A stretch of 64,000 nucleotides of DNA from Escherichia phage WG01. The stretch lies in the sequence record NC_031928.1; one strand, 5' to 3'. Shown here piece after piece: positions 20,482 to 37,055 of this stretch (position 1 is the first letter of the stretch; every line of letters starts with the position of its first letter). The position numbers were made by a program, and so were the translations under genes. The notes under the pieces were generated by a model. It saw nothing but the letters and a program-made list of their open reading frames with translations, was not told the origin of the DNA and made no database searches.

Positions 20482-20755
20482 GCTTTTTAAGCTTACGACA
20501 ATAAGAATAGAACACGTCGTTAAAATTATATTCAACCCAATTCCTCTGTATAGGCGAGGTAATGGAAAGCATATAATGCGCTTTAATTAAATCCATCCCG
20601 TTTTTATTAGGACACTCTTTATTATTAGCATTATACGTCGCTGCTACAACCTCTATCTCTCTTTTGTAAGCCACATCATCCATGATAGGCGAAAGAACAA
20701 TATAAGAAATAGCCACAGCGAACGCTAGAATTAAAATCTTTGAATTTAGGTCCAT
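20477..20755 (-). CDS. membrane-anchored/secreted protein (92 aa)
   Basis: N-terminal hydrophobic segment ILILAFAVAISYIVL. Confidence 0.4.
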   Translation of the reverse strand: MDLNSKILILAFAVAISYIVLSPIMDDVAYKREIEVVAATYNANNKECPNKNGMDLIKAHYMLSITSPIQRNWVEYNFNDVFYSYCRKLKKL

Positions 20756-20762
20756 AATACCC

Positions 20763-21335
20763 TCAACTCGTTATTTCTATCCAGTGCTTCCTGCACAATG
20801 ACACGTAAGAATCGTTGCCACCTATAGAAACTTGGGCGCCGTCCTTAATTGCGATACCATCCTGGACCCTAGCAGTCATAGTAGCTTTACGGCCACAATG
20901 GCACACACCTTTGTACTCAACGAGTTTATCTGCCGTAGCGAGTAATTCAGCAGAGCCAGGAAACAGTTTACCCTGAAAATCAGTTCTTAGCCCATAGCAC
21001 ATAACTGGAACATTATAATTGTCTACTATCTTTGCCAGTTGTTTTATCTGTGCAGGTTCTAAGAACTGTGCTTCATCCACAAATACACAGTGGATATCTT
21101 TTTGAGATTCAGCCCAACGATAGAACTCGTATAGGTCCATATCCGGAGTCACGGCATTAGCCTCTTGACTAATCCCTATACGAGACGAAATGCTATGGCT
21201 TGATTCTCTATTGTCTATCGCAGGCTTTAAAAGGAGTACGCCCATACCGCGTTCTTTGTAGTTATGAGCCGCTGTTAGCAATGAAGCGGTCTTCCCAGAA
21301 TTCATCGCCGCATAGTGAAAATAAAGTTGAGCCAT
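20763..21335 (-). CDS. tk: thymidine kinase
   Basis: 190 aa; P-loop AAMNSGKT; C-terminal CHCG...C zinc site; close match to T4 Tk as recalled. Confidence 0.93.
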   Translation of the reverse strand: MAQLYFHYAAMNSGKTASLLTAAHNYKERGMGVLLLKPAIDNRESSHSISSRIGISQEANAVTPDMDLYEFYRWAESQKDIHCVFVDEAQFLEPAQIKQLAKIVDNYNVPVMCYGLRTDFQGKLFPGSAELLATADKLVEYKGVCHCGRKATMTARVQDGIAIKDGAQVSIGGNDSYVSLCRKHWIEITS

Positions 21336-21344
21336 ATTACCTTC

Positions 21345-21551
21345 TTAAAGACTATTTACATAAGCAATTAATTCATTTTCTTTCTCATCAAATCGATTAG
21401 CAAATTCTTCCAGATGGTCGGCATCTATAGGGCCGTATTCATCATAAAAGGCGTTTGCTTCTGTATGCTCGTCCAAAAGCTCATGGATAAGCTCAAACAA
21501 TTTATCTTTCTGTTCTTTACTCAGACTCATAACCATTGCACCTTTAAGCAA
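21345..21551 (-). CDS. hypothetical acidic protein (68 aa)
   Basis: ATG ORF. Confidence 0.35.
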   Translation of the reverse strand: MLKGAMVMSLSKEQKDKLFELIHELLDEHTEANAFYDEYGPIDADHLEEFANRFDEKENELIAYVNSL

Positions 21552-21739
21552 TATTCTTCTACATGCTGTTTACGTTTATTTTTATCTATAAAAGTATATT
21601 CAACATATTCACCAATATACCATTTATCGGTGTTGTGTTGACTTTTTATAGGGCATTTAGTTACTCGTGTTTCGGTCCAGCGTCGAATAATTTCCGCTTT
21701 GTTTTTAGGGTCAAACGGATGCGGGTAATGGGCTTTCAT
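21527..21739 (-). CDS. hypothetical protein (70 aa)
   Basis: ATG ORF. Confidence 0.35.
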   Translation of the reverse strand: MKAHYPHPFDPKNKAEIIRRWTETRVTKCPIKSQHNTDKWYIGEYVEYTFIDKNKRKQHVEEYCLKVQWL

Positions 21740-22178
21740 AATCTACCACCACTAAATTAATATCAGGAGTAAACAAATTAATCAATTGGTAAACCTTGTC
21801 CCAATCACCACCAGCAATACCACAACCAATGCGAGGAATATAAATTCTTGGTTTAAACAAAAGACCTTTTGCGGTACGGTTTAATTCTATCATACAGTTT
21901 ACTAAAGCACCATAATCAAGATTAGGGCCTGGTTCGTATTGGGTATATAAATTATAGCAAATTTGGCCATTATTACCTGTAGCTTGAGTAAACGTGCCAA
22001 GTTTTGCCAAATTGCCTAAATAAGTAGTTTTATCGATAGCGAGAATAGGCGGATAAGCCTTAGCCAATTGCCCAGCTACACCTGAACCCATTGTGTGGAA
22101 ACAGTTGCACCCGTGTGCAACATTATTACCTTGAAGAAACAGGGCGACGATATCGCCCTTAATATAATCAATAATCAT
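21711..22178 (-). CDS. macro-domain protein (ADP-ribose binding/processing fold)
   Basis: 155 aa; Gly-rich loops NVAHGCNCFHTMGSGVAGQL and IGCGIAGGDW resemble macro-domain ligand-binding motifs. Confidence 0.55.
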   Translation of the reverse strand: MIIDYIKGDIVALFLQGNNVAHGCNCFHTMGSGVAGQLAKAYPPILAIDKTTYLGNLAKLGTFTQATGNNGQICYNLYTQYEPGPNLDYGALVNCMIELNRTAKGLLFKPRIYIPRIGCGIAGGDWDKVYQLINLFTPDINLVVVDYESPLPASV

Positions 22179-22531
22179 TTAGAGTTTAATCCTCGATTGT
22201 ATGAGTCAACGAGTCTGTCTACCATAGACGCGCACATTTCTTTGTACTTTTTATCAGATGGAATACATTCAGTAACGTTTAGACGTTGCTCGTATCTTTT
22301 AGAAAGAGTTTTCTCTTTCATTCGGCGATGCTCTACGTCATTCTGGCCATCTTTAAAAGCAGCTGTGATTTTTGAACTGAATTCGATAATGCATTCAGTA
22401 TTGCTCGGATGACAATAATCTTTTGCTGTACGGGTAGCATACTCGACAATTGAATTATTACTATCATCAACTTGTGACGCTAATACTCCCGGAGCAATCA
22501 ACATAAGCGCTATAGTCATCTGCTTAATCAT
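22175..22531 (-). CDS. secreted Cys-containing protein (118 aa)
   Basis: signal peptide MIKQMTIALMLIAPGVLASQ; four Cys. Confidence 0.4.
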   Translation of the reverse strand: MIKQMTIALMLIAPGVLASQVDDSNNSIVEYATRTAKDYCHPSNTECIIEFSSKITAAFKDGQNDVEHRRMKEKTLSKRYEQRLNVTECIPSDKKYKEMCASMVDRLVDSYNRGLNSK

Positions 22532-23071
22532 TTAATACACCGCCTCAAACATCTTTTTAGATTTTAGGTAATTGGCCTTTTCTAGAACTTCAGAAGCATA
22601 TTTACTGCCTGCTTTGGCGTTCCAGCCCGCATTATAAGAAGCAATCGCTTTTCTCAGGTCACCTTTGTGAACATCAATCCAATAAGACAGTTCAATGTAG
22701 GCCCAAGAGGCACTGTTCTGTCGTTTTTGGACCATACGAATTATTTCTTTGTCTGACATCTTCCAACCTACCTGTTGAACACGACTTCTTAACGTAGGCA
22801 AGTAATTTTGGAACATGCCATAAGCATGGTGCTTATCTTTATTTAAACCCTGATTAATTCCGGCAGATGATTCCTGCCATAGTAATCCGGCCATGATATA
22901 TCCTAATCCTTTTTGATTAGGGTTTTCTTTGAACTTTCCCGACTTTTGGTATTGTTCACCGAAAGCATATGCATAATGCAAATTGTCGAGTTGCTCACTG
23001 TTGAAAGTAGGCTCTACGCTATAGGCAGACATACTAACTGTCAATAGTAAAGTGGCTAATACTTTTTTCAT
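22532..23071 (-). CDS. periplasmic lytic transglycosylase-like protein (SLT domain)
   Basis: 179 aa; signal peptide MKKVLATLLLTVSMSAYS; SLT-like motifs WQESS, AYGMFQ, SYNAGWN. Confidence 0.5.
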   Translation of the reverse strand: MKKVLATLLLTVSMSAYSVEPTFNSEQLDNLHYAYAFGEQYQKSGKFKENPNQKGLGYIMAGLLWQESSAGINQGLNKDKHHAYGMFQNYLPTLRSRVQQVGWKMSDKEIIRMVQKRQNSASWAYIELSYWIDVHKGDLRKAIASYNAGWNAKAGSKYASEVLEKANYLKSKKMFEAVY

Positions 23072-23083
23072 GAGACCTCATTA

Positions 23084-23542
23084 TTAAAGATAGATTACTT
23101 TCGTGCTGGTTTTACCTTCTAAACGTTTAGAGTTAACAAATGCCATACGACATTTAAGGGAATATCCTTTATCAGGATGTTTACGGTCTACAGTCATACC
23201 TAGCCATAAGGTTTTATCGGTAATTTCGAGACGCAATGGGCGATACACTTTACCAGGAATGATTTCGGCTTCTACATCAGGCAGAGGTTCCTGGATTAAA
23301 AATTCATGAATTTCTTTAACATGGTTATGGAGTTGCTTGAATAAAGCAAAAACGTATTTTTCGTCGATTTCACGTTGGATAGCACGGTCCAACAAGTGAT
23401 TAGAGTACTTAATAAAGAAGGCTGGGACTCCGCTCTTAATGGCGGCTTTTTTGATGGACGCATTCAGTTCACGGAATTCGGTTTCGAACTGACGACGTAA
23501 TTTATTGCGGCGGATGAATACTTCTGAATTAATTTCTGACAT
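23084..23542 (-). CDS. regB: RegB site-specific endoribonuclease
   Basis: ATG at 23542 gives 153 aa (T4 RegB length) starting MSEINSEVFIRRNKLRR, closely matching T4 RegB as recalled; the longer ORF-track version runs into the promoter. Confidence 0.85.
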   Translation of the reverse strand: MSEINSEVFIRRNKLRRQFETEFRELNASIKKAAIKSGVPAFFIKYSNHLLDRAIQREIDEKYVFALFKQLHNHVKEIHEFLIQEPLPDVEAEIIPGKVYRPLRLEITDKTLWLGMTVDRKHPDKGYSLKCRMAFVNSKRLEGKTSTKVIYL

Positions 23543-23559
23543 TTTGTAATCTCCTGTAG

Positions 23560-23600
23560 TTGATAGGTTTATAGTATCATACCTACAGGAGATGTAAACT
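23560..23600 (-). promoter_or_regulatory. early promoter cassette
   Basis: GTTTACA -35, TACTATAAACC -10 region, dyad CCTGTAG/CTACAGG. Confidence 0.6.
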
Positions 23601-23603
23601 GCT

Positions 23604-23882
23604 TTAGTACTTTTCTTCCGGTTGGAAAACGGAACGACACGCCCACATACTAGCTTCTTTAAGACGGTCAATTGCATTACGAATCTGGGTAATGCGTTCA
23701 TGAGCCTGGTCTAGTTCTTGTTCAGAAACCTCTTCGGTATCTAAGTTCATATAATAGGTAACATGTTCTTCTTCTAGAGCTTTAAACATCAGCCCTAACC
23801 GAATTTCGGCATCTTTAATAGCATTCACTTTACCGATTTTATCGTCGGTATGTGGTTTGTAACCCTTGATATCTTCAATCAT
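23604..23882 (-). CDS. hypothetical protein (92 aa)
   Basis: ATG ORF; T4 vs.3/vs.4 position. Confidence 0.4.
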   Translation of the reverse strand: MIEDIKGYKPHTDDKIGKVNAIKDAEIRLGLMFKALEEEHVTYYMNLDTEEVSEQELDQAHERITQIRNAIDRLKEASMWACRSVFQPEEKY

Positions 23883-24097
23883 TTCACTTCCTCGCCAGTT
23901 GCGATATCATATTCTACCAAACGAAGGCCTTCAGTCCAACCTTGCACGGAGATATAGGTAGTCGGGTAAATCATTTCTTTACCGTTCCACCGACCGCCAT
24001 CCCAGACTTCCAGAAAGTCTTGTTCACCTGGTCCATTAAGCCATTCAACAAATCTTTTCAGAGCTTCTTCAGAACCTTCAATTGTCAATTTAGACAT
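23879..24097 (-). CDS. hypothetical protein (72 aa)
   Basis: ATG ORF. Confidence 0.4.
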   Translation of the reverse strand: MSKLTIEGSEEALKRFVEWLNGPGEQDFLEVWDGGRWNGKEMIYPTTYISVQGWTEGLRLVEYDIATGEEVK

Positions 24098-24434
24098 ATT
24101 TTTTCCAATCAGAAATCATATGAATCTCTTGGTCATAAGTCAAGAGACTACGAGCAATAATACCCTTACAAGGCCCTGAGATGAACTCGAGAGTGAAGTA
24201 AGGAACCTGTTTCATTAATCGGATACTAGGAGCATGACATCTAAAACGAGAGCCCTTAAAGGGCCCTGTCATGAATACATATTCCAATGGGTAGAAATAA
24301 GCATATTCGAAATTTGCAGTAAGGTCCTCTCTTCGAACCTTACGTGAGAAATAACAGAACTCAAAAAGTTCTTCATCAGTCATCATTGCATTCCTATCAC
24401 AAAGAACAGAGGCAAAGGCTTGTCGCCTTGGCAC
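24090..24434 (-). CDS. hypothetical protein (114 aa or shorter)
   Basis: ORF; start uncertain. Confidence 0.35.
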   Translation of the reverse strand: MPRRQAFASVLCDRNAMMTDEELFEFCYFSRKVRREDLTANFEYAYFYPLEYVFMTGPFKGSRFRCHAPSIRLMKQVPYFTLEFISGPCKGIIARSLLTYDQEIHMISDWKKYV

Positions 24435-24910
24435 ATAAATTTATTAATCATTACCTGGTAAGCTTCATAGAACTTATCCATCGCTGGAAGGCGCATTGGC
24501 TCTTCGATAATAATCAATAATCGAGTAACAGATAGTCCACGATACTTATGGAAATTGTCTTCATCAAGGAAACTGCGCACAGTATCATAGACAACAAAAC
24601 CAGGACCTTCGACTTGGAGATGTGGGTGTGCCTTAGAAACCTGTTTTATTACATTACAAATTTCTCGCGAGCGATGCGAAGAACTCGACATAACAATCAC
24701 ATCATTACCCTTGGAAACCCAATCAGCGGCGAACTGAGCAAGGGCACTTGTTTTACCTGTTTGGCGTCCGCCATCAAGTCGAAGAGTACCAAACTCTTGC
24801 ATTCTTGAAGCAGGTTCATACCAGGTATATTGGTCTGAGTCTAAACGTTCAATGGCGCGTTCAGCGAAGGCGTGCATTAAGGTTAGATAAATGGGAGTTA
24901 AAAATTTCAT
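24383..24910 (-). CDS. small P-loop protein (175 aa)
   Basis: ATG at 24910 with AAGGA RBS; GRQTGKTS Walker-A-like loop. Confidence 0.4.
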   Translation of the reverse strand: MKFLTPIYLTLMHAFAERAIERLDSDQYTWYEPASRMQEFGTLRLDGGRQTGKTSALAQFAADWVSKGNDVIVMSSSSHRSREICNVIKQVSKAHPHLQVEGPGFVVYDTVRSFLDEDNFHKYRGLSVTRLLIIIEEPMRLPAMDKFYEAYQVMINKFMCQGDKPLPLFFVIGMQ

Positions 24911-25059
24911 AGTATTTCCTTTGAGGGCCGTTCCTTGGCACATTAATTCGTCCCTTTCTGCATTTACCCATTACCGCACTTGGGCTCGACCTTATTACAG
25001 GTTGGCGGGAGTCCCTCACAGAATTGTGAGGTCCAGGTTGCTCCCATTTAAAATGCTAA

Positions 25060-25317
25060 TTAACGTTCTTCGTGTTTAAAACCTTTCTTAGTAAACAGCT
25101 TAACAACATCTGCTACTTTACGAAGTTGATCTGCATCAGCAACCAGTTGCTTAACCACTTTCTCGTCAGTTTCTTTAGAGCTAAAAGCGTGCTCAAGTTC
25201 GTCATCATTAGGGTCGGCCATAGAAACTTCAGTGCCGGAAGGTTTAACGTTTACAATCATATTCCAACGTTTAGAAACTAAAGTGGATTCTGTAATAAAT
25301 TCTTGGTAAGTTTTCAT
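25060..25317 (-). CDS. internal-protein-like packaged protein (CTS-tagged, 85 aa)
   Basis: N-terminus MKTYQEFITE, the T4 capsid-targeting sequence ending in the prohead-protease motif I/L-x-E. Confidence 0.6.
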   Translation of the reverse strand: MKTYQEFITESTLVSKRWNMIVNVKPSGTEVSMADPNDDELEHAFSSKETDEKVVKQLVADADQLRKVADVVKLFTKKGFKHEER

Positions 25318-25325
25318 ATTAAGCC

Positions 25326-25685
25326 TTAAAGATGGTCTAGTGCCGGGTTATGAGGTTTTTCTGCTTTAGTAGTGTTTTTATGCCAATCTGATTTAGAAAC
25401 ACGGATGGCATCCGCGCCATAAGAACTCTTAAGGAGACCTTTTTTATTGTACACACTTATTGAAGTAAGAGAATCACCATTCCATGTAGCATGAATGAAG
25501 TTAGATTTAGATTTAAGTTCTTTAGCCAAGCTCTGGTTAGTGGCCATGGAAGCAAAGTCTTTACCTGTAACTTTAAAAACTTCAGATGGGTTCAGCCCTT
25601 CTTTGGCCTTAGCCAATTGTTCAGGAGACATAGCTTCGTTAATGCGCTGAGTAGATTCAGTAATAAATTGTTGGTAAGTTTTCAT
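25326..25685 (-). CDS. internal-protein-like packaged protein (CTS-tagged, 119 aa)
   Basis: N-terminus MKTYQQFITE. Confidence 0.6.
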   Translation of the reverse strand: MKTYQQFITESTQRINEAMSPEQLAKAKEGLNPSEVFKVTGKDFASMATNQSLAKELKSKSNFIHATWNGDSLTSISVYNKKGLLKSSYGADAIRVSKSDWHKNTTKAEKPHNPALDHL

Positions 25686-25727
25686 ATTATTCCTTAAGTT
25701 GATAGAAGTATTCTATCACGGATTTAA

Positions 25728-26144
25728 TTAAGCGTAAATAGCCTTGCCGTAATGTTTGTACCAGGTAGAGCGTTGTGCAATTTTTTCGTCCAAACGGGCC
25801 TGAGATATAGCAATAGAAGCTTCGTGTGGAGTATAGTCACCACGGAATTCCTGAGGAATGTCACTAATGTCCTGGACAGTAGTATCCTTGATATTAAAAC
25901 CACGTTTTAAACATTCGGCTATAAGCTCAATTTGTCGCTTACGTAAAAATTCAAGCTTATCGTAAAAGAATGTAACATGGCCTGTGCCAAGGATAAAAGT
26001 AGGACTGATTTTGAAATCACGGACACGTTTACCATTAGCAACATGCTTACGAACTGCACCGAAAACACGTGGTAATTCACGATATTCAGCCATTAAGTGT
26101 TGGTCAGCCAATTCAGATACTAAGGTAAGGTTGATACGAGTCAT
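25728..26144 (-). CDS. denV: endonuclease V (pyrimidine-dimer DNA glycosylase) DenV
   Basis: 138 aa; near-identical to T4 DenV as recalled ([34 protein letters not shown]...). Confidence 0.95.
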
Positions 26145-26159
26145 TTTTAATCTCCTGTA

Positions 26160-26200
26160 GTTGATAGGTCTATAGTATCATGACTACAGGAGATGTAAAC
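26160..26200 (-). promoter_or_regulatory. early promoter cassette
   Basis: GTTTACA -35, TACTATAGACC -10 region, dyad CCTGTAG/CTACAGG. Confidence 0.6.
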
Positions 26201-26224
26201 AACTTTTATCAAGTATAGGCTTTA

Positions 26225-26821
26225 TTAATTACCACGGGCAGCATTAGCAACGGCGTAAGCGTACTGAATATTAGCGTCTTTAAACGTACCTTTAGAGGTA
26301 TCTATTTCTGCCTTAAAGCCGCCTTTAGCCATAACATCGGCAAATTCTTTACGGAAAGTCATTGCATCAAGACCTTTCCATGCGGATTTATGCTTGGCAA
26401 ATTCAAGACCGGCGAAGTTGACCGCCTTAGCCAATTTATTATCAATAGTCCATTTACCTGCTTTAGGTACAAATACAGGACCTTTCTGTTTAGAGAACAG
26501 TTTTAAATTCCAGCGACGAAGGTCGCCGTCAGCTTTAACAAAAGCTGCGTCCAAGTTACTAGCAACAACATCTTGGATATGGGCAAATTTAAGTCCATCA
26601 GCTTCAATATTTAGGTCGTTACGCCAGCGAAGTCCTTCCCAGGCGAAAGCTTTAAAATCAGAAGCTTTTGTAGCCAAGTACCGTTCAATAGGAGCTGTTT
26701 TAGCGTCAAAACCGTTTCCTGGGTTGTCAACGCCGTTTCCTTTGTAAGTCCACTCATCTTTATTAATGCCTTGGACCTTTCCTACAGAAGCTTCGGCGAT
26801 AAATTCTTTATACGTTTTCAT
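26225..26821 (-). CDS. ipIII: internal protein III-like (CTS-tagged, 198 aa)
   Basis: N-terminus MKTYKEFIAE; length and position next to e match T4 IPIII. Confidence 0.7.
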   Translation of the reverse strand: MKTYKEFIAEASVGKVQGINKDEWTYKGNGVDNPGNGFDAKTAPIERYLATKASDFKAFAWEGLRWRNDLNIEADGLKFAHIQDVVASNLDAAFVKADGDLRRWNLKLFSKQKGPVFVPKAGKWTIDNKLAKAVNFAGLEFAKHKSAWKGLDAMTFRKEFADVMAKGGFKAEIDTSKGTFKDANIQYAYAVANAARGN

Positions 26822-26903: not shown

Positions 26904-27302
26904 TTATTTATAGGTCTTCATCCAATTCTTGAACAAAGCCGCGACGTCTTTCTCTTTAACGTTCAGTTTAATGTCCAACATTTTACCACCCGCTGCTCTG
27001 GTTTGGCGAATCTTAGCAGTACCGGTTTCGCCATTCCACTCAACATAATACTGTCCAGTGTTCATTGCAATACCATCACCGTAGTCTTCATTTTTAGAAG
27101 TGGTGAATGCTAGCTTCATAGTCTTAGATACACGAGCCTGCATGCCTGTCTGAAGGGCATTACGAACGCGAATAACCTGAGGAGTGGCCTGGGTCAAGTT
27201 CTCATTCAGTTCTTCAGTGAACTCTTCAGATTCAAACATCGCCAAAAGTTCTTTAGATGCAGGAATTACATTCTCTGCGATAAATTCATTATAAGTTTTC
27301 AT
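26904..27302 (-). CDS. internal-protein-like packaged protein (CTS-tagged, 132 aa)
   Basis: N-terminus [10 protein letters not shown]; T4 ipII position. Confidence 0.6.
26905..26912 (-). promoter_or_regulatory. candidate late promoter TATAAATA
   Basis: exact TATAAATA on the minus strand upstream of ipIII, overlapping the upstream stop codon. Confidence 0.4.
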
Positions 27303-27813: not shown

Positions 27814-28263
27814 TCAAAAGAGTGAATCCAAAACCTTAAACATCGACGGGCCCATGACATATTCCCATTGTGGCCGTTTAATCAAGGCAAAAGCATCGAA
27901 TTCAGGAATAGTACGACCATCAGGGAACGTATGGTAAGCCGTACATTTGCAATCCTTGAACTGCTCGTGTTCCACAGGAACTGTATATAAGAACAGATGT
28001 AGATTCTTATTGCTTGAATATTTGAACTCACCTAGGTCTTTCAGGAACGCAGGATCGTATGCTGTGAATCCAATCTCTTCTTCGGTTTCGCGCATTGCCG
28101 CTTGAATGGGCTCTTCGCCTGGTTCGACATGACCCTTAGGAATGTCCCATTTATGACGCATATTCTCTGGATTACGAGAGCCTGTTACACGGCCCATGAC
28201 CAGTTCTTTATCAACGGTCATGAATAAAATACCGGCAGATAGTTCTTTCACTTTCTTACTCAT
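27814..28263 (-). CDS. nudE: Nudix hydrolase NudE
   Basis: ATG at 28263 gives 150 aa; Nudix box GHVEPGEEPIQAAMRETEEEIG; follows e as in T4. Confidence 0.85.
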   Translation of the reverse strand: MSKKVKELSAGILFMTVDKELVMGRVTGSRNPENMRHKWDIPKGHVEPGEEPIQAAMRETEEEIGFTAYDPAFLKDLGEFKYSSNKNLHLFLYTVPVEHEQFKDCKCTAYHTFPDGRTIPEFDAFALIKRPQWEYVMGPSMFKVLDSLF

Positions 28264-28492
28264 CGTCTCGTTCCCATGATTGTTTAAAAATATCTTGCAT
28301 AATAATTTGAAGTCTATTTTCTGATGATGGACTTTCACTATCAGACACTTGAAGCATATAGTCACCAATAGGACAGAACATATCCATATCGCTTTCTAAG
28401 TCTTCTTTAATTTTCTCTTCTGATGTTCCGGTATCATAGGAATACAGATAAGAATCACATGACTCAGATTTAATATAAATTGCAATGCTCAT
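28256..28492 (-). CDS. hypothetical acidic protein (78 aa)
   Basis: ATG with AAGGAA RBS lying in the conserved junction motif. Confidence 0.35.
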   Translation of the reverse strand: MSIAIYIKSESCDSYLYSYDTGTSEEKIKEDLESDMDMFCPIGDYMLQVSDSESPSSENRLQIIMQDIFKQSWERDDE

Positions 28493-29076
28493 TTACGGCA
28501 TTCCTTAATAAAAGAGTTTAATGTATTTTTCTTAGTGATATCGTCATATACCTTTTTAACTTTAGAAATACGAAAAGGTACTTCGATAACAGAGGTCCAT
28601 AAAAATGATGCGATAAGACCTAAGATAGCAGCAGACATCGCTGAAGCGAATACACAAATAGGCAGGTCATTATCTGTTGTCAGGAAAAACCCTAGGAGTG
28701 GGAAAAATAATATACCCATCCAAACATAGAATCTAGAACTCACCAATTTGTCGTATTCATCACTCCAGGCACGGAAGCCGTATTTTTTGCTATAACAAAT
28801 CAATGGGTCTGGAGTCTGTTCTTTATATGGTTCCGCTTGCCAGCCGTTTACAATATAGCCCATTTTATATTCCTCAATTAAAAGCTGTTTCATTTCGGCA
28901 GTACAACCTGACCAATCTATTGTACTGGCTGAAATTCCTTCATCACAGTCATCGATATTTCGCCAGGACTTTTTAATAATCATATTCTCACCACTTGGGA
29001 TAATAATTCCAGCATTTTCCGACCGACGGATGAAGTTTGTATCAATACCCATACAACCAGGTTCATAAAGGGCCAT
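28489..29076 (-). CDS. membrane protein with conserved C-terminal FIKEC tail (195 aa)
   Basis: ATG start; two C-terminal TM helices; tail ...NSFIKECRK. Confidence 0.45.
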   Translation of the reverse strand: MALYEPGCMGIDTNFIRRSENAGIIIPSGENMIIKKSWRNIDDCDEGISASTIDWSGCTAEMKQLLIEEYKMGYIVNGWQAEPYKEQTPDPLICYSKKYGFRAWSDEYDKLVSSRFYVWMGILFFPLLGFFLTTDNDLPICVFASAMSAAILGLIASFLWTSVIEVPFRISKVKKVYDDITKKNTLNSFIKECRK

Positions 29077-29762
29077 TACCAGCCCTCCATAGGGAATTCC
29101 AGATATACTTGAGCATTAACGCGGATTTCATTTGTAATCTTTTTAACACGGTCTGTATTACGAGACACACGACCAAACCAGCGCCAACCGTTACTTACTG
29201 CACGAGAACCTGTATGCCATGTCTGCCAATCAAACTGGAGCAACGTGCGGTCAGGAGCATCCCACTTAGTTAATTCATTAGACTCAATTTTTTCCAGAAC
29301 TTCTTTATGCCACTGGCGATAGATAAGTTCGCCTTCAGGAATCTGACTGAACTGGGCAGTTCCGGTTGCAAAATGAGTAGGACACACATCAGCGTTAACA
29401 AGACCAAGAATATGTTCAGAATGGTATCGAGGATTATCATAATCAGGTTGCCCTGCGGTAATAAAGTGTTGACCCACCGGAATATCCGGGCGTGGTACAT
29501 CATCATGGTGGAAGCCTGGAATTGCAGGGTACCAGCCGGGCATTAACATGTGTACACGGGAATCAAATACGCATTCAACGGCTTTCCACTCATCAGGGAG
29601 ATTAGTAATAAAGCTACGAGTAATAGGACCACCATTTTGTGCAGCAAAATTCAAATCACAGTTAAAGAACATAGGCTCGTTTTTAATATCATCATTAGAA
29701 ATATGACCTGCAAAACCACCTACTGCACGAGCTTTAGAATTAAAAGTTTTCGGACCGTTCAT
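29076..29762 (-). CDS. hypothetical protein (228 aa), His/Asp-rich
   Basis: ATG with GAGGA RBS; HHDD...H cluster. Confidence 0.5.
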   Translation of the reverse strand: MNGPKTFNSKARAVGGFAGHISNDDIKNEPMFFNCDLNFAAQNGGPITRSFITNLPDEWKAVECVFDSRVHMLMPGWYPAIPGFHHDDVPRPDIPVGQHFITAGQPDYDNPRYHSEHILGLVNADVCPTHFATGTAQFSQIPEGELIYRQWHKEVLEKIESNELTKWDAPDRTLLQFDWQTWHTGSRAVSNGWRWFGRVSRNTDRVKKITNEIRVNAQVYLEFPMEGW

Positions 29763-29776
29763 AATATTTTCCTCAC

Positions 29777-29989
29777 TTACTTTTTGTTGAAAAAGTACAT
29801 TTTACCTTTAGGAGATAAGGATACACGAAGTGCGTTACCAATACCAACTGAACATTTAACCAGGTCAGCAGATTTCAATTCACCAAATGCTTGACGAAGG
29901 TCACCATCACGAGTGTTAACCATCAGGCATTTAGCACCAGCTGCACGAACTTCGTTTAACATGTTGATTGCTTGGTTAGAAAGTTTCAT
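29777..29989 (-). CDS. hypothetical protein (70 aa)
   Basis: ATG at 29989 with GGAGA RBS; upstream ORF-track codons lie in the promoter. Confidence 0.4.
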   Translation of the reverse strand: MKLSNQAINMLNEVRAAGAKCLMVNTRDGDLRQAFGELKSADLVKCSVGIGNALRVSLSPKGKMYFFNKK

Positions 29990-30015
29990 TTTATTCTCCA
30001 TTTCACTCTGTTGTT

Positions 30016-30056
30016 TTGATAGGTCTATAGTATCACACCTATAGACCTTGTACACT
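30016..30056 (-). promoter_or_regulatory. promoter cassette variant (GTGTACA -35)
   Basis: dyad GGTCTATAG/CTATAGACC around TACTATAGACC. Confidence 0.5.
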
Positions 30057-30067
30057 GTTTTGTGCAA

Positions 30068-31027
30068 TTATTTTTCGAAAGGACGAATTAAATGTTGGTT
30101 ACGCTTAAACCGTTCAATGTAGTCGTTTTCACCTAAAGTCTTGTACATATTAACCACAGCTTGGTAGTTTTCCCATGCATAAGTGCGGAACCAACCTGAA
30201 GTGATTGAGGTGCACACTTTCTCAAGGGCCATATAGAAACTTAATGATGGTGAAATATTGAAGTCATTAGGAACCTGTGAACGTTCTAGTGCCAGGACAC
30301 AAGTTTCTTCATACACACCAGCCAGTTTAATAGCTTCAGGCAAAGCCTCGAACTTCTCACGAGAGGTCATGACTTCAGAACCTTCCTTCATATAAAAGGT
30401 ATATGCAGGGCGCCCTGCCAATGCCACTGCTTCATGGATAGAGTCGTGGTCTAGGGTATAAATGGTATCATTAAAGAACGATGATTTGTTTACATCCAAT
30501 TTAGGGTGGGAATAGCTCAACGTTTCTTTTTGACGTTGCAACATAATTTCCTGGAGTTCTTCGTTAAGGGTGATACCTTTATTACGAAGGTATTTGATGT
30601 GGGACATGGTTTTCAAGAAGAACGGATTATTCTTCAAGAAACGATGGGAGGTTTTGATAGCCAGACAGATATCAGGGGTTGCCCAATAGAAACCTGTAAG
30701 ACGGTCCTTTTTAATATGATTTTCAGCATATTTCAGAAGACGATAACTTGAGGTGAAATCTTCATCTTGGAGCTCACCGGTGATTTCTCGTACGTTAGTC
30801 AGAGCACGAACGATATATGCTTCAAAATAGGTTTCTTTACCGTTGTACATGCATTTAAAAGCCTGGACATCAGGATTATCCACAGGAACATGGGCACCAA
30901 ACATCCGAGCTTTAAAGTGATTCCATGAGCCTTGGTCGGCAATGAAATCCCAATCAGAATTTTCGATATGCTTACTTTCAATCAGACCAGCGTGGTGCAG
31001 TGCACGAGAACCAATAACTAACATCAT
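30068..31027 (-). CDS. hypothetical protein (319 aa)
   Basis: ATG at 31027 with GAGGA RBS; N-terminal VIGSRALHH...SDWDF is only weakly nucleotidyltransferase-like. Confidence 0.45.
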   Translation of the reverse strand: MMLVIGSRALHHAGLIESKHIENSDWDFIADQGSWNHFKARMFGAHVPVDNPDVQAFKCMYNGKETYFEAYIVRALTNVREITGELQDEDFTSSYRLLKYAENHIKKDRLTGFYWATPDICLAIKTSHRFLKNNPFFLKTMSHIKYLRNKGITLNEELQEIMLQRQKETLSYSHPKLDVNKSSFFNDTIYTLDHDSIHEAVALAGRPAYTFYMKEGSEVMTSREKFEALPEAIKLAGVYEETCVLALERSQVPNDFNISPSLSFYMALEKVCTSITSGWFRTYAWENYQAVVNMYKTLGENDYIERFKRNQHLIRPFEK

Positions 31028-31046
31028 AATATTTTCCTCAGTAAAC

Positions 31047-31286
31047 TTAAATTTCAGCGACGTAATCGTTATGCAATTCCCACATATCATCAGAATTATT
31101 CTTAATGATAGGAATTATCTCATTAGAGATTTCTTCAGCATAAGGGTCATTGATACAGTGGGCATCTTCAAAACGAACACCGTAATCAGACTTCTTATAA
31201 GAGAAGCCATAAATCTTTTTAAACTTGGCGCGAGTAATGCGTACCGGTTCATTAGACTTATCGGACATCGGAGCGTAATACCACAT
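31047..31286 (-). CDS. hypothetical protein (79 aa)
   Basis: ATG ORF downstream of a promoter cassette. Confidence 0.4.
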   Translation of the reverse strand: MWYYAPMSDKSNEPVRITRAKFKKIYGFSYKKSDYGVRFEDAHCINDPYAEEISNEIIPIIKNNSDDMWELHNDYVAEI

Positions 31287-31305
31287 ATGTTCTCCTCATG
31301 TTTGT

Positions 31306-31350
31306 GTAGGGTAATAGTAACATGATTTTCTAGAGTTGTACATCACTTCT
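31306..31350 (-). promoter_or_regulatory. promoter cassette variant
   Basis: TGTACA -35-like and TACTAT -10-like with dyad GGGTAATAG. Confidence 0.4.
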
Positions 31351-31680
31351 GCAATATTCTAAAAATAATTTATCATTGTCTACTGTATCCCAACGACGCC
31401 AAGACGGGTTCCAGACCAAAGCGTTGTCACCACAATCATTGAGCTTAAAATGGTCGTAGTACATAGCTATGTGTCTAGTCTCGTCACCAGAGAACCCCAG
31501 TATAGGCTCACCGCGGGTGTGATACATATGATGGTGCATTGAGAGGTCGCATTTGTAAAACATCTCACGTTTACCACGAACGAACAAGAAGGCCTGTCCA
31601 TTCATATAGAATTCTTTATTTGTTTTCAAAAGATATTTGAATACTGAATCTTTATGCATAAGTCCTCCTACCACATCCAT
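31330..31680 (-). CDS. hypothetical protein (116 aa)
   Basis: ATG ORF; His/Cys-rich. Confidence 0.4.
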   Translation of the reverse strand: MDVVGGLMHKDSVFKYLLKTNKEFYMNGQAFLFVRGKREMFYKCDLSMHHHMYHTRGEPILGFSGDETRHIAMYYDHFKLNDCGDNALVWNPSWRRWDTVDNDKLFLEYCRSDVQL

Positions 31681-31689
31681 GTGGTTAAA

Positions 31690-31917
31690 TTATTTTCCTA
31701 ACGAAATACGAGTAGGTTTTTTACCGAAATAGTCTTCATAAGAACCATCTAAACGACCTGCTTTAGACCGACAATATGAATCGTACTTTTTGTAATAAGT
31801 CATCTCAGTATTATAACGCGGGTGTCTATCAGCCATAATAATACTTAACGGCCAACCTTTGGCATAATCGCGAAGACCATTTATTTTACGAATGTATCTT
31901 TTCTTTAATTTTAGCAT
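31690..31917 (-). CDS. hypothetical basic protein (75 aa)
   Basis: ATG overlapping upstream stop. Confidence 0.4.
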   Translation of the reverse strand: MLKLKKRYIRKINGLRDYAKGWPLSIIMADRHPRYNTEMTYYKKYDSYCRSKAGRLDGSYEDYFGKKPTRISLGK

Positions 31918-32135
31918 GAGCTCGGATACCAGATTTTACCATCGGCCTGAGCAACGAAGGTGCGACCAGCTTCTTCGCCATAACACGAGCTATTCAGCCA
32001 ATCTTCGAGACGAACTTCACCGTCATAATCGTCGAGCTCAACACCAAAACTTTGAGCAGAAGCCATATCTTTTACTTTCTTATACAGTGCAGCCAGTTCA
32101 AGTGCAGCTTTTTCTAATTCATTAATATCAGACAT
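31911..32135 (-). CDS. small acidic protein, paralog family member (C-terminal W..SSC)
   Basis: 74 aa; ATG with AAGGTGA RBS; ends WYPSSC. Confidence 0.45.
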   Translation of the reverse strand: MSDINELEKAALELAALYKKVKDMASAQSFGVELDDYDGEVRLEDWLNSSCYGEEAGRTFVAQADGKIWYPSSC

Positions 32136-32146
32136 TTTTTATCACC

Positions 32147-32359
32147 TTAGCAAGACATAGAGGATGTAAACCAGAAACCTTCACCTTCCGGAATACCGTA
32201 GTCATCACGGACCCATTCGTAATCATCATATTCCGGGTTCTTTGGAGAAATGTATTCTCCACGACCAGAAACACGGAACTCTTCACCCGTTTCGTCAGCC
32301 ACAGACTGGCCTTTACGTACTAATTCACGGATTTGGTTTTCAATTTCATCAATAGTCAT
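32147..32359 (-). CDS. small acidic protein, paralog family member
   Basis: 70 aa; ATG with AAGGA RBS; ends FWFTSSMSC. Confidence 0.45.
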   Translation of the reverse strand: MTIDEIENQIRELVRKGQSVADETGEEFRVSGRGEYISPKNPEYDDYEWVRDDYGIPEGEGFWFTSSMSC

Positions 32360-36898: not shown

Positions 36899-36973
36899 TG
36901 GTATCCCGCCCTGGGATCGAACCAGGACCGCAAACTTAGAAGGATCGTATGCTATCCATTACACCAGCGGGAC
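36899..36973 (-). tRNA. tRNA-Arg (anticodon TCT)
   Basis: minus strand cloverleaf with anticodon loop CTTCTAA, T-loop GGTTCGATCC and encoded CCA. Confidence 0.8.
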
Positions 36974-36978
36974 GTAGT

Positions 36979-37055
36979 TGGTGACCCAGACCAGATTTGA
37001 ACTGGTAACCTTTCCCTTATGAGGGGACTGCTGCTAACCATTGAGCTACAGGGCC
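36979..37055 (-). tRNA. tRNA with CAT anticodon (Met or lysidine-type Ile)
   Basis: minus strand GGCCCTGTAGCTCAATGGTTAGCAGCAGTCCCCTCATAAGGGAAAGG...GTTCAAATC...CCA. Confidence 0.7.

Follow-up and report, generated by a model that had tools for sequence, protein, structure and literature searches.

The tk.4 (adfM) gene of Escherichia phage WG01 is predicted to encode a Gln-type macrodomain ADP-ribosyl hydrolase with a probable role against DarTG2

The window analysed here, 64,000 nt of Escherichia phage WG01 (NC_031928.1), carries on its minus strand a 155-aa macrodomain gene that, judged by its sequence and gene order, is the syntenic orthologue of T4 tk.4 (AdfM). The gene is already known as tk.4, and its T4 orthologue has an assigned counter-defence function. 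We consider it probable that the window gene encodes a stand-alone macrodomain hydrolase, an orphan antitoxin-like enzyme directed against DarTG2-type defences. The annotation would accordingly read tk.4/adfM, macrodomain ADP-ribosyl hydrolase, anti-DarTG2 factor, in place of 'hypothetical protein' or a mere 'phosphatase'. Our analysis adds modestly to what is known, namely a predicted Gln-type active site, the distinction from a chimallivirus protein of the same name, and a link between AdfM and the macrodomain Adpp, which suggests a testable dual-substrate hypothesis.

Genomic context and orthology to T4 tk.4

A sequence-only reading of this DNA had placed a 155-aa product at 21711..22178, between tk and regB. 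An ATG-to-stop ORF is present there on the minus strand, and Pfam matches to TK on one side and REGB_T4 on the other confirm its position. The features of the gene and its surroundings are as follows.

20763..21335, minus-strand run: tk, downstream of tk.4 (Pfam TK, 5.4e-57)
21527..21739, minus-strand run: tk.3, direct neighbour (Pfam DUF7202, 2.5e-37)
21711..22178, minus strand: tk.4 (AdfM) coding sequence, 155 aa (ATG-to-stop ORF, Pfam match, orthology, synteny, model)
21711..21713, minus strand: tk.4 stop codon (ORF)
21711..21739, minus strand: overlap of the tk.4 3' end with the tk.3 start, 29 nt (ORF coordinates)
21801..21830, minus strand: ADP-ribose-binding loop 2 (diphosphate, distal ribose), residues 117-126, IGCGIAGGDW (alignment)
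21939..21941, minus strand: Gln80 codon, motif N-L-Y-T-Q (alignment with reference enzymes)
22065..22124, minus strand: ADP-ribose-binding loop 1, residues 19-38, NVAHGCNCFHTMGSGVAGQL (translation)
22104..22106, minus strand: Asn25 codon, within loop 1 (alignment)
22175..22194, minus strand: tk.4 translation start region (read from the sequence)
22176..22178, minus strand: tk.4 ATG, preceded by an 11-nt spacer and GAGGA at 22190..22194 (sequence)
22175..22531, minus-strand run: vs, direct neighbour (PHROG 'valyl tRNA synthetase modifier', 3.2e-34)
23084..23701, minus strand: regB ORF, upstream of tk.4 (Pfam REGB_T4, 2.6e-68)

The gene lies within a long run of minus-strand genes, and the order regB, vs.1, vs, tk.4, tk.3, tk.2, tk is common to T4, Bp7 and the window. 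Over 3.1 kb around tk.4 the nucleotide identity to Shigella phage PSD9 and Escherichia phage Bp7 is 97-98%, by which the phage type belongs to the genus Dhakavirus. PSD9 encodes a protein 100% identical to the window product, the Bp7 orthologue is annotated as tk.4, and close relatives list the gene as 'phosphatase' or 'macro domain protein'. Compared with the Bp7 orthologue the gene shows a pN/pS of 0.17, calculated from 16 differences. In the window and the rest of the Bp7 genome tk.4 is the sole significant macrodomain locus. The window protein aligns end to end with T4 Tk.4 at 53% identity and 72% positives (E 1e-62 over 155 aa); both are single-domain proteins of 155 aa encoded between vs and tk.3, and both carry H22, G23, N25, N76, Y78 and Q80. 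They differ in loop 2, which reads IGAGIGKGNW in T4 whereas the window has the family consensus.

At its start the tk.4 ATG overlaps the TGA stop codon of vs (22175..22177) as ATGA, and the same 4-nt overlap is annotated in T4 and Bp7, which suggests that translation of tk.4 is coupled to that of vs. The overlap with tk.3 at the other end measures 29 nt in Bp7 as in the window, in contrast to 4 nt in T4, and covers some of the codons for the C-terminal tail beyond residue 150 (SPLPASV), a segment disordered in the structural model. Two plus-strand ORFs overlapping tk.4, at 22095..22412 and 21563..21760, found no match in the PHROG search and were treated as spurious. A promoter scan of 20500..26500 gave 16 promoter-like sites against 16.8 expected and does not inform on the timing of expression, while terminator-like sites in the scanned region numbered 8 against 4.0 +/- 2.3 expected. 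One of these, a GC-rich hairpin with a T-rich stretch after it, is located on the coding strand within tk.4 codons 7-13 (22141..22159, minus strand) and could be due to chance or form an mRNA structure near the coupled start. The regB ORF comprises 205 aa from its first ATG, but the Pfam RegB match starts at residue 57 and the Bp7 annotation gives 152 aa; translation of regB probably begins at the internal Met54 (MSEINSE...).

Macrodomain fold and breadth of the family

The product had been read as a macro domain on account of two Gly-rich loops. Both loops are found in the translation at residues 19-38 and 117-126, and the domain itself is borne out by profile and structure searches. Pfam Macro (PF01661) matches residues 22-132 with 32.8 bits, the gathering cut-off being 22, and covering profile positions 2-117 of 118, and PHROG 335 matches at 1.4e-66. 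With the single sequence, solved structures were matched in the order BT1257 (7.5e-9), SCO6735 (3.9e-7), Poa1p (2.1e-6) and the DarG macrodomain of M. tuberculosis (6.6e-5); a profile built from 65 homologues gave stronger matches, to BT1257 (1.4e-19), TARG1 (3.3e-18), SCO6735 (2.5e-16), Poa1p (2.2e-14) and DarG (2.4e-11). The AlphaFold2 model, made from 64 sequences, has a mean pLDDT of 94.1 and a pTM of 0.88, with disorder limited to the last five residues (151-155, pLDDT <50). It shows the three-layer alpha/beta/alpha macro fold, and a Foldseek search against the PDB ranked TARG1 first (3.9e-10). The glycine loops are kept on alignment: D9 (the adenine Asp), N25, G31-x-G33 and G118-x-G120 share columns with residues that bind the ligand in TARG1, DarG and SCO6735, and are retained within the family. 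By structure as well as sequence the nearest neighbours are TARG1, DarG, SCO6735/BT1257 and Poa1p, and not the MacroD, PARG or viral X-domain classes. Because Pfam, structure matches, profile, AlphaFold2 model and Foldseek agree, we assign the protein, on sequence and model, to the ALC1-like/TARG1-like macrodomain class.

Homologues were detected by tblastn in 2,731 of 50,697 phage records (about 5%), with carriers among T4-like, rV5-like, Felix-O1-like, Ackermannviridae, PAK_P1-like and Vibrio phages. Searched against 1.84 billion cluster representatives, the family profile collected 1,256 clusters at 50% identity with E<=1e-30 and 9,836 with E<=1e-10; among the best 150 profile matches, nearly every one is a stand-alone protein of about 150-160 aa. 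Shortened homologues of 130, 127, 120 and 92 aa occur in several T4-like phages, and in Escherichia phage vB_Eco_TB37 the tk.4 match is split in two pieces. Such sequences would fit a dispensable accessory gene that decays without selection.

A predicted Gln-type active site

For comparison of the active site we aligned with MAFFT the window protein, T4 Tk.4, 63 family members, BT1257, SCO6735, TARG1, two DarG macrodomains and PhiKZ gp104. Loop 1 contains His22, Gly23, Asn25 and the phosphate-binding turn G31-S-G33; all 65 aligned family members have H22, G23, N25 and G33, which are also nearly invariant in 261. In loop 2, whose counterparts are IGCGLAGGTW in SCO6735 and IGCGLDRLQW in TARG1, no variation is seen at G118, G120 and W126, and A122, G123 and G124 are conserved to at least 90%. 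Gln80, together with Asn25, His22, Asn76 and Tyr78, is invariant among the 65 family sequences; in the wider set of 261, Gln80 is kept in 260 and the remaining member has a gap there.

Asn25 falls in the same column as SCO6735 Asn27, DarG Asn22 and PhiKZ AdfM Asn23, all needed for activity (SCO6735: PMC9411070). Gln80 occupies the position of the catalytic Lys in DarG (K80), TARG1 (K84) and PhiKZ AdfM (K78), and of the essential Gln85 in SCO6735; BT1257 has Gln here as well. The register of Gln80 was obtained from MAFFT with the reference enzymes and from a profile alignment to TARG1 and BT1257. A pairwise BLAST alignment with PhiKZ gp104 mis-registered the catalytic position by two residues, and family-anchored MAFFT and HMM alignments were therefore used. 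For SCO6735, hydrolysis of thymidine-linked ADP-ribose on DNA has been demonstrated, as has the rescue of cells from DarT; activity is abolished in its Q85A mutant and nearly so in N27S, and the proposed mechanism is water-mediated (PMC9411070). These alignments place T4-type AdfM among the Gln-type enzymes and, in its predicted mechanism, nearer to SCO6735 than to DarG, the protein with which T4 AdfM was compared in the HIDEN-SEQ preprint (bioRxiv 10.1101/2025.11.20.689424).

SCO6735 and BT1257, Gln-type ALC1-like macrodomains, are nevertheless cellular and not viral proteins, 26-27% identical to the window protein, and have Val25 or Ile where it has Gly23; Val25 of SCO6735 has a proposed role through its backbone. 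SCO6735 also has a mobile loop with Lys89 and Lys94, whereas the loop after Gln80 in the window protein is 5-6 residues shorter and without lysines; the extended lysine-bearing loop of SCO6735 holds DNA. In addition, SCO6735 is basic (pI 9.5) and the window protein mildly acidic (pI 6.0). Charge was dropped as a test of DNA binding, as PhiKZ AdfM, a proven DNA enzyme, is also acidic (pI 5.1).

The Lys-type enzymes are more distant. DarG macrodomains (M. tuberculosis 5M3I, T. aquaticus 5M31/5M3E; K80) and the chimallivirus AdfM, PhiKZ gp104 (K78), differ from the window protein in the catalytic residue, share about 20% identity with it and sit on a separate tree branch. DarG further has a C-terminal DarT-binding domain, whereas the window protein ends after the macrodomain. 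The NCBIfam DarG model NF048014 scored 20.4 bits against a cut-off of 250, and of the 329 positions of the PADLOC DarG profile the window protein covers 3-142, the macro part. By score, domain content and catalytic residue (Gln80 for Lys) we rejected an identity as DarG. TARG1/OARD1 and Poa1p are 20-23% identical to the window protein. The Lys84/Asp125 dyad of TARG1 is replaced by Gln80/Ala122, and in the Poa1p alignment His22, Thr29 and Ala122 correspond to His23, Ser30 and Phe152, residues changed in deposited mutants; a search for literature on the roles of these three Poa1p residues found no describing paper.

A probable role against DarTG2

DarT2 ADP-ribosylates thymidines in single-stranded DNA, and the DarG2 macrodomain reverses the modification. 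In T4, transposon sequencing on a DarTG2-expressing host (HIDEN-SEQ) returned tk.4 as the single significant gene, and a clean tk.4 knock-out confirmed the DarTG2 sensitivity (bioRxiv 10.1101/2025.11.20.689424, November 2025 preprint). Because its deletion sensitises T4 to DarTG2, tk.4 was there named adfM, for anti-DarT factor macrodomain; the removal of ADP-ribose from DNA is the authors' proposal from genetic evidence, and within the Tk.4 orthologous group the phenotype has been shown for T4 only. PhiKZ gp104, separately also named AdfM in a 2026 paper, removes thymidine-linked ADP-ribose in vitro, and PhiKZ without it is sensitised to DarTG2.

By analogy with these relatives, the most likely job of the window protein would be the removal of ADP-ribose from phage DNA. 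After infection the host toxin DarT2 would put ADP-ribose on thymidines in single-stranded phage DNA and thereby block replication. The window protein would grip the ADP-ribose moiety by its two glycine-rich loops and cut the bond at C1'' of the distal ribose, releasing free ADP-ribose and restoring the DNA. Catalysis is predicted to be of SCO6735 type, with Asn25 positioning Gln80, Gln80 orienting the distal ribose and water carrying out the chemistry, and not to follow the lysine mechanism of DarG and TARG1. From the T4 phenotype and the biochemistry of the relatives we infer both thymidine-ADP-ribose hydrolase activity and an anti-DarTG2 role. The earlier suggestion of a regulator or counter-defence enzyme is supported in its counter-defence part by the DarTG2 phenotype of the T4 orthologue; its regulator part fared poorly against the linkage and distribution evidence considered below.

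A link between AdfM and Adpp

The RES-domain defence aRES converts NAD+ to nicotinamide and ADP-ribose-1''-phosphate, and some NARP1 operons encode a macrodomain, Adpp, that dephosphorylates ADPR-1''-P and so lets NARP1 rebuild NAD+; the purified Adpp of Vibrio phage Gary (gp137) performs this dephosphorylation (bioRxiv 10.64898/2026.01.28.702374, January 2026 preprint). Taking the Adpp sequences from Table S1 of that preprint, we found Gary Adpp to have 40% identity with the window protein (E 9e-30) and to score 121.6 bits on the Tk.4-family HMM. It shares the His, Asn, Tyr-x-Gln and IGCGLAGGDW motifs as well as PHROG 335. It differs near the active site, with Gln23, Arg29 and Gly79 for Gly23, Thr29 and Thr79; in its location between Adps and Namat, whereas the window gene is flanked by vs and tk.3; and in its demonstrated substrate, a small molecule and not DNA. 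PAK_P1-type proteins in the Adpp table are the same as our Pseudomonas tblastn matches (phiMK, 36.5% identity). A further homologue, 35% identical to the window protein, was found in Acinetobacter phage vB_AbaM_B09_Aci02-2.

1905..5474 of the Aci02-2 piece examined: operon of ribose-phosphate pyrophosphokinase, a small ORF, nicotinamide phosphoribosyltransferase and a Tk.4-like macrodomain

The macrodomain start abuts the nicotinamide phosphoribosyltransferase stop, and the pyrophosphokinase gave no Pfam match at E<=0.001. By gene content this looks like a NARP1-AP operon, its macrodomain carrying the Tk.4-type Gly23 and Thr79. Residues 23, 29 and 79 were considered as a NARP1 signature and discarded, because NARP1-linked proteins of Acinetobacter phages carry the Tk.4 residues and no clean signature results. 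PHROG 335 was likewise too broad to discriminate AdfM from Adpp and includes the Lys-type PhiKZ gp104 too. In a neighbour-joining tree, a rough distance tree that carries no support values, the Tk.4 proteins group with the NARP1-associated ones in a single clade whose sister is SCO6735/BT1257, with the Aci02-2 protein nested among Tk.4-like sequences and with DarG and PhiKZ AdfM on another branch.

We tentatively propose, at somewhat less than an even chance, that Tk.4/AdfM and Adpp constitute one family in which one active site hydrolyses different C1'' substituents of ADP-ribose (thymine N3, phosphate), and that the window protein is bifunctional and blunts DarTG2 as well as RES-type NAD+ phosphorolysis. 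The AdfM and Adpp preprints mention neither each other's protein nor each other's system. If the bifunctional reading is true, the two names describe the same catalyst, and one active site serving both substrates would amount to a two-way counter-defence carried by about 5% of sequenced phages. The presence of the gene could then be used in host-range prediction for therapeutic T4-like phages on strains bearing DarTG2 or aRES.

Alternative readings of the window protein

Several observations speak against the DarTG2 role: no more than 53% of its residues are shared with T4 Tk.4, loop 2 departs from the T4 sequence, the pI is 6.0, the lysine-bearing extended loop of SCO6735 is missing, and Gary Adpp of the same family is an ADP-ribose-1''-phosphate phosphatase and not a DNA hydrolase. 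A rival reading is an Adpp/Poa1p-like phosphatase whose main substrate is a small molecule, ADPR-1''-P, supplied by the RES-domain NAD+ phosphorylases of the aRES defence or from elsewhere and turned into ADP-ribose. The two roles are compatible, since both reactions replace the C1'' substituent of ADP-ribose. The published pathway, however, needs Adps and Namat to convert ADP-ribose to NAD+, and neither was found: tblastn with the Aci02-2 queries against the window and Bp7 1-133,500, together a whole genome, gave a best E of 1.0, annotations of the window and the Bp7 genome list none, Pfam on nine of the window's larger ORFs returned none, and Escherichia phages do not figure in Table S1 of the preprint on Adpp. 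With the NARP1 genes absent from the phage type, a role in the NARP1 pathway does not apply, although the activity itself might; dephosphorylation of the 1''-phosphate without NARP1 would not restore NAD+. We regard a mainly phosphatase role as unlikely, and rank de-ADP-ribosylation of DNA first, because the closer relative T4 Tk.4 is syntenic and shows the DarTG2 phenotype and the NARP1 genes are absent.

The protein might also neutralise DarT2 or another ADP-ribosyltransferase mainly by binding and blocking it, with catalysis secondary or absent. Catalytically dead SCO6735 Q85A does inhibit DarT in vitro, more strongly than DarG and TARG1 mutants (PMC9411070), and AdfB of phage ICP1 counters DarT through direct binding (PMC11481870). 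The residues for ADP-ribose binding and hydrolysis are, however, all invariant over hundreds of diverged homologues, a pattern that argues for an enzyme and not for a toxin-specific binder, and the DarT-binding domain of DarG is missing from the 155-aa protein, so that we hold binding as the main function to be quite improbable. A further reading is regulation of the phage's own ADP-ribosylation, by reversal of Alt, ModA or ModB marks on host proteins or RNA. T4-type phages encode ADP-ribosyltransferases, as had been stated for this DNA, and the Bp7 genome has two alt copies together with modA and modB; TARG1-class macrodomains are able to act on protein- and nucleic-acid-linked ADP-ribose. 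Yet the target of the T4 ADP-ribosyltransferases is arginine, and the resulting linkage is one that ARH/DraG-type enzymes remove and that macrodomains are not known to cleave, which makes it a poor fit here. The gene is not near alt or mod, T4 tk.4 is non-essential and scored on DarTG2 only, and the family is common in Pakpunavirus, Felixounavirus and Thalassavirus, phages without a stated Alt/Mod link; we give such a regulatory role very little credence.

Other ADP-ribose and accessory genes

The following features were located in the near-identical Bp7, outside the window.

24929..25387 and 28075..32214 of Bp7 piece 83501-133500, with 21645..22883 of Bp7 piece 33501-83500: gp30.3 orthologue, two tandem alt genes, modA and modB

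T4 30.3, or AdfN, is a NADAR enzyme against DarTG1. Because Bp7 encodes a gp30.3 orthologue, the phage type probably carries both known enzymatic anti-DarT factors along with its own ADP-ribosyltransferases. Within the window we noted three further loci.

26225..26821 and 26904..27302, minus strand: ORFs for an internal virion protein (PHROG 5341, 3.9e-115) and a protein of unknown function (PHROG 15461, 8e-92)
27814..28368, minus strand: nudE orthologue, NUDIX-domain ORF (Pfam 1.3e-14), about 6 kb from tk.4
36899..37055, minus strand: adjacent tRNA-Arg (TCT) and tRNA-Met (CAT)

T4 NudE is reported to hydrolyse ADP-ribose, and the nudE product could dispose of what the macrodomain releases. 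The nudE ORF as listed starts at TTG, and the real gene is probably shorter. In Bp7 the lysozyme gene e adjoins denV, whereas in the window these two genes are separated by the ORFs at 26225..26821 and 26904..27302, both of which Bp7 lacks. The two tRNA genes are the only ones found in the window.
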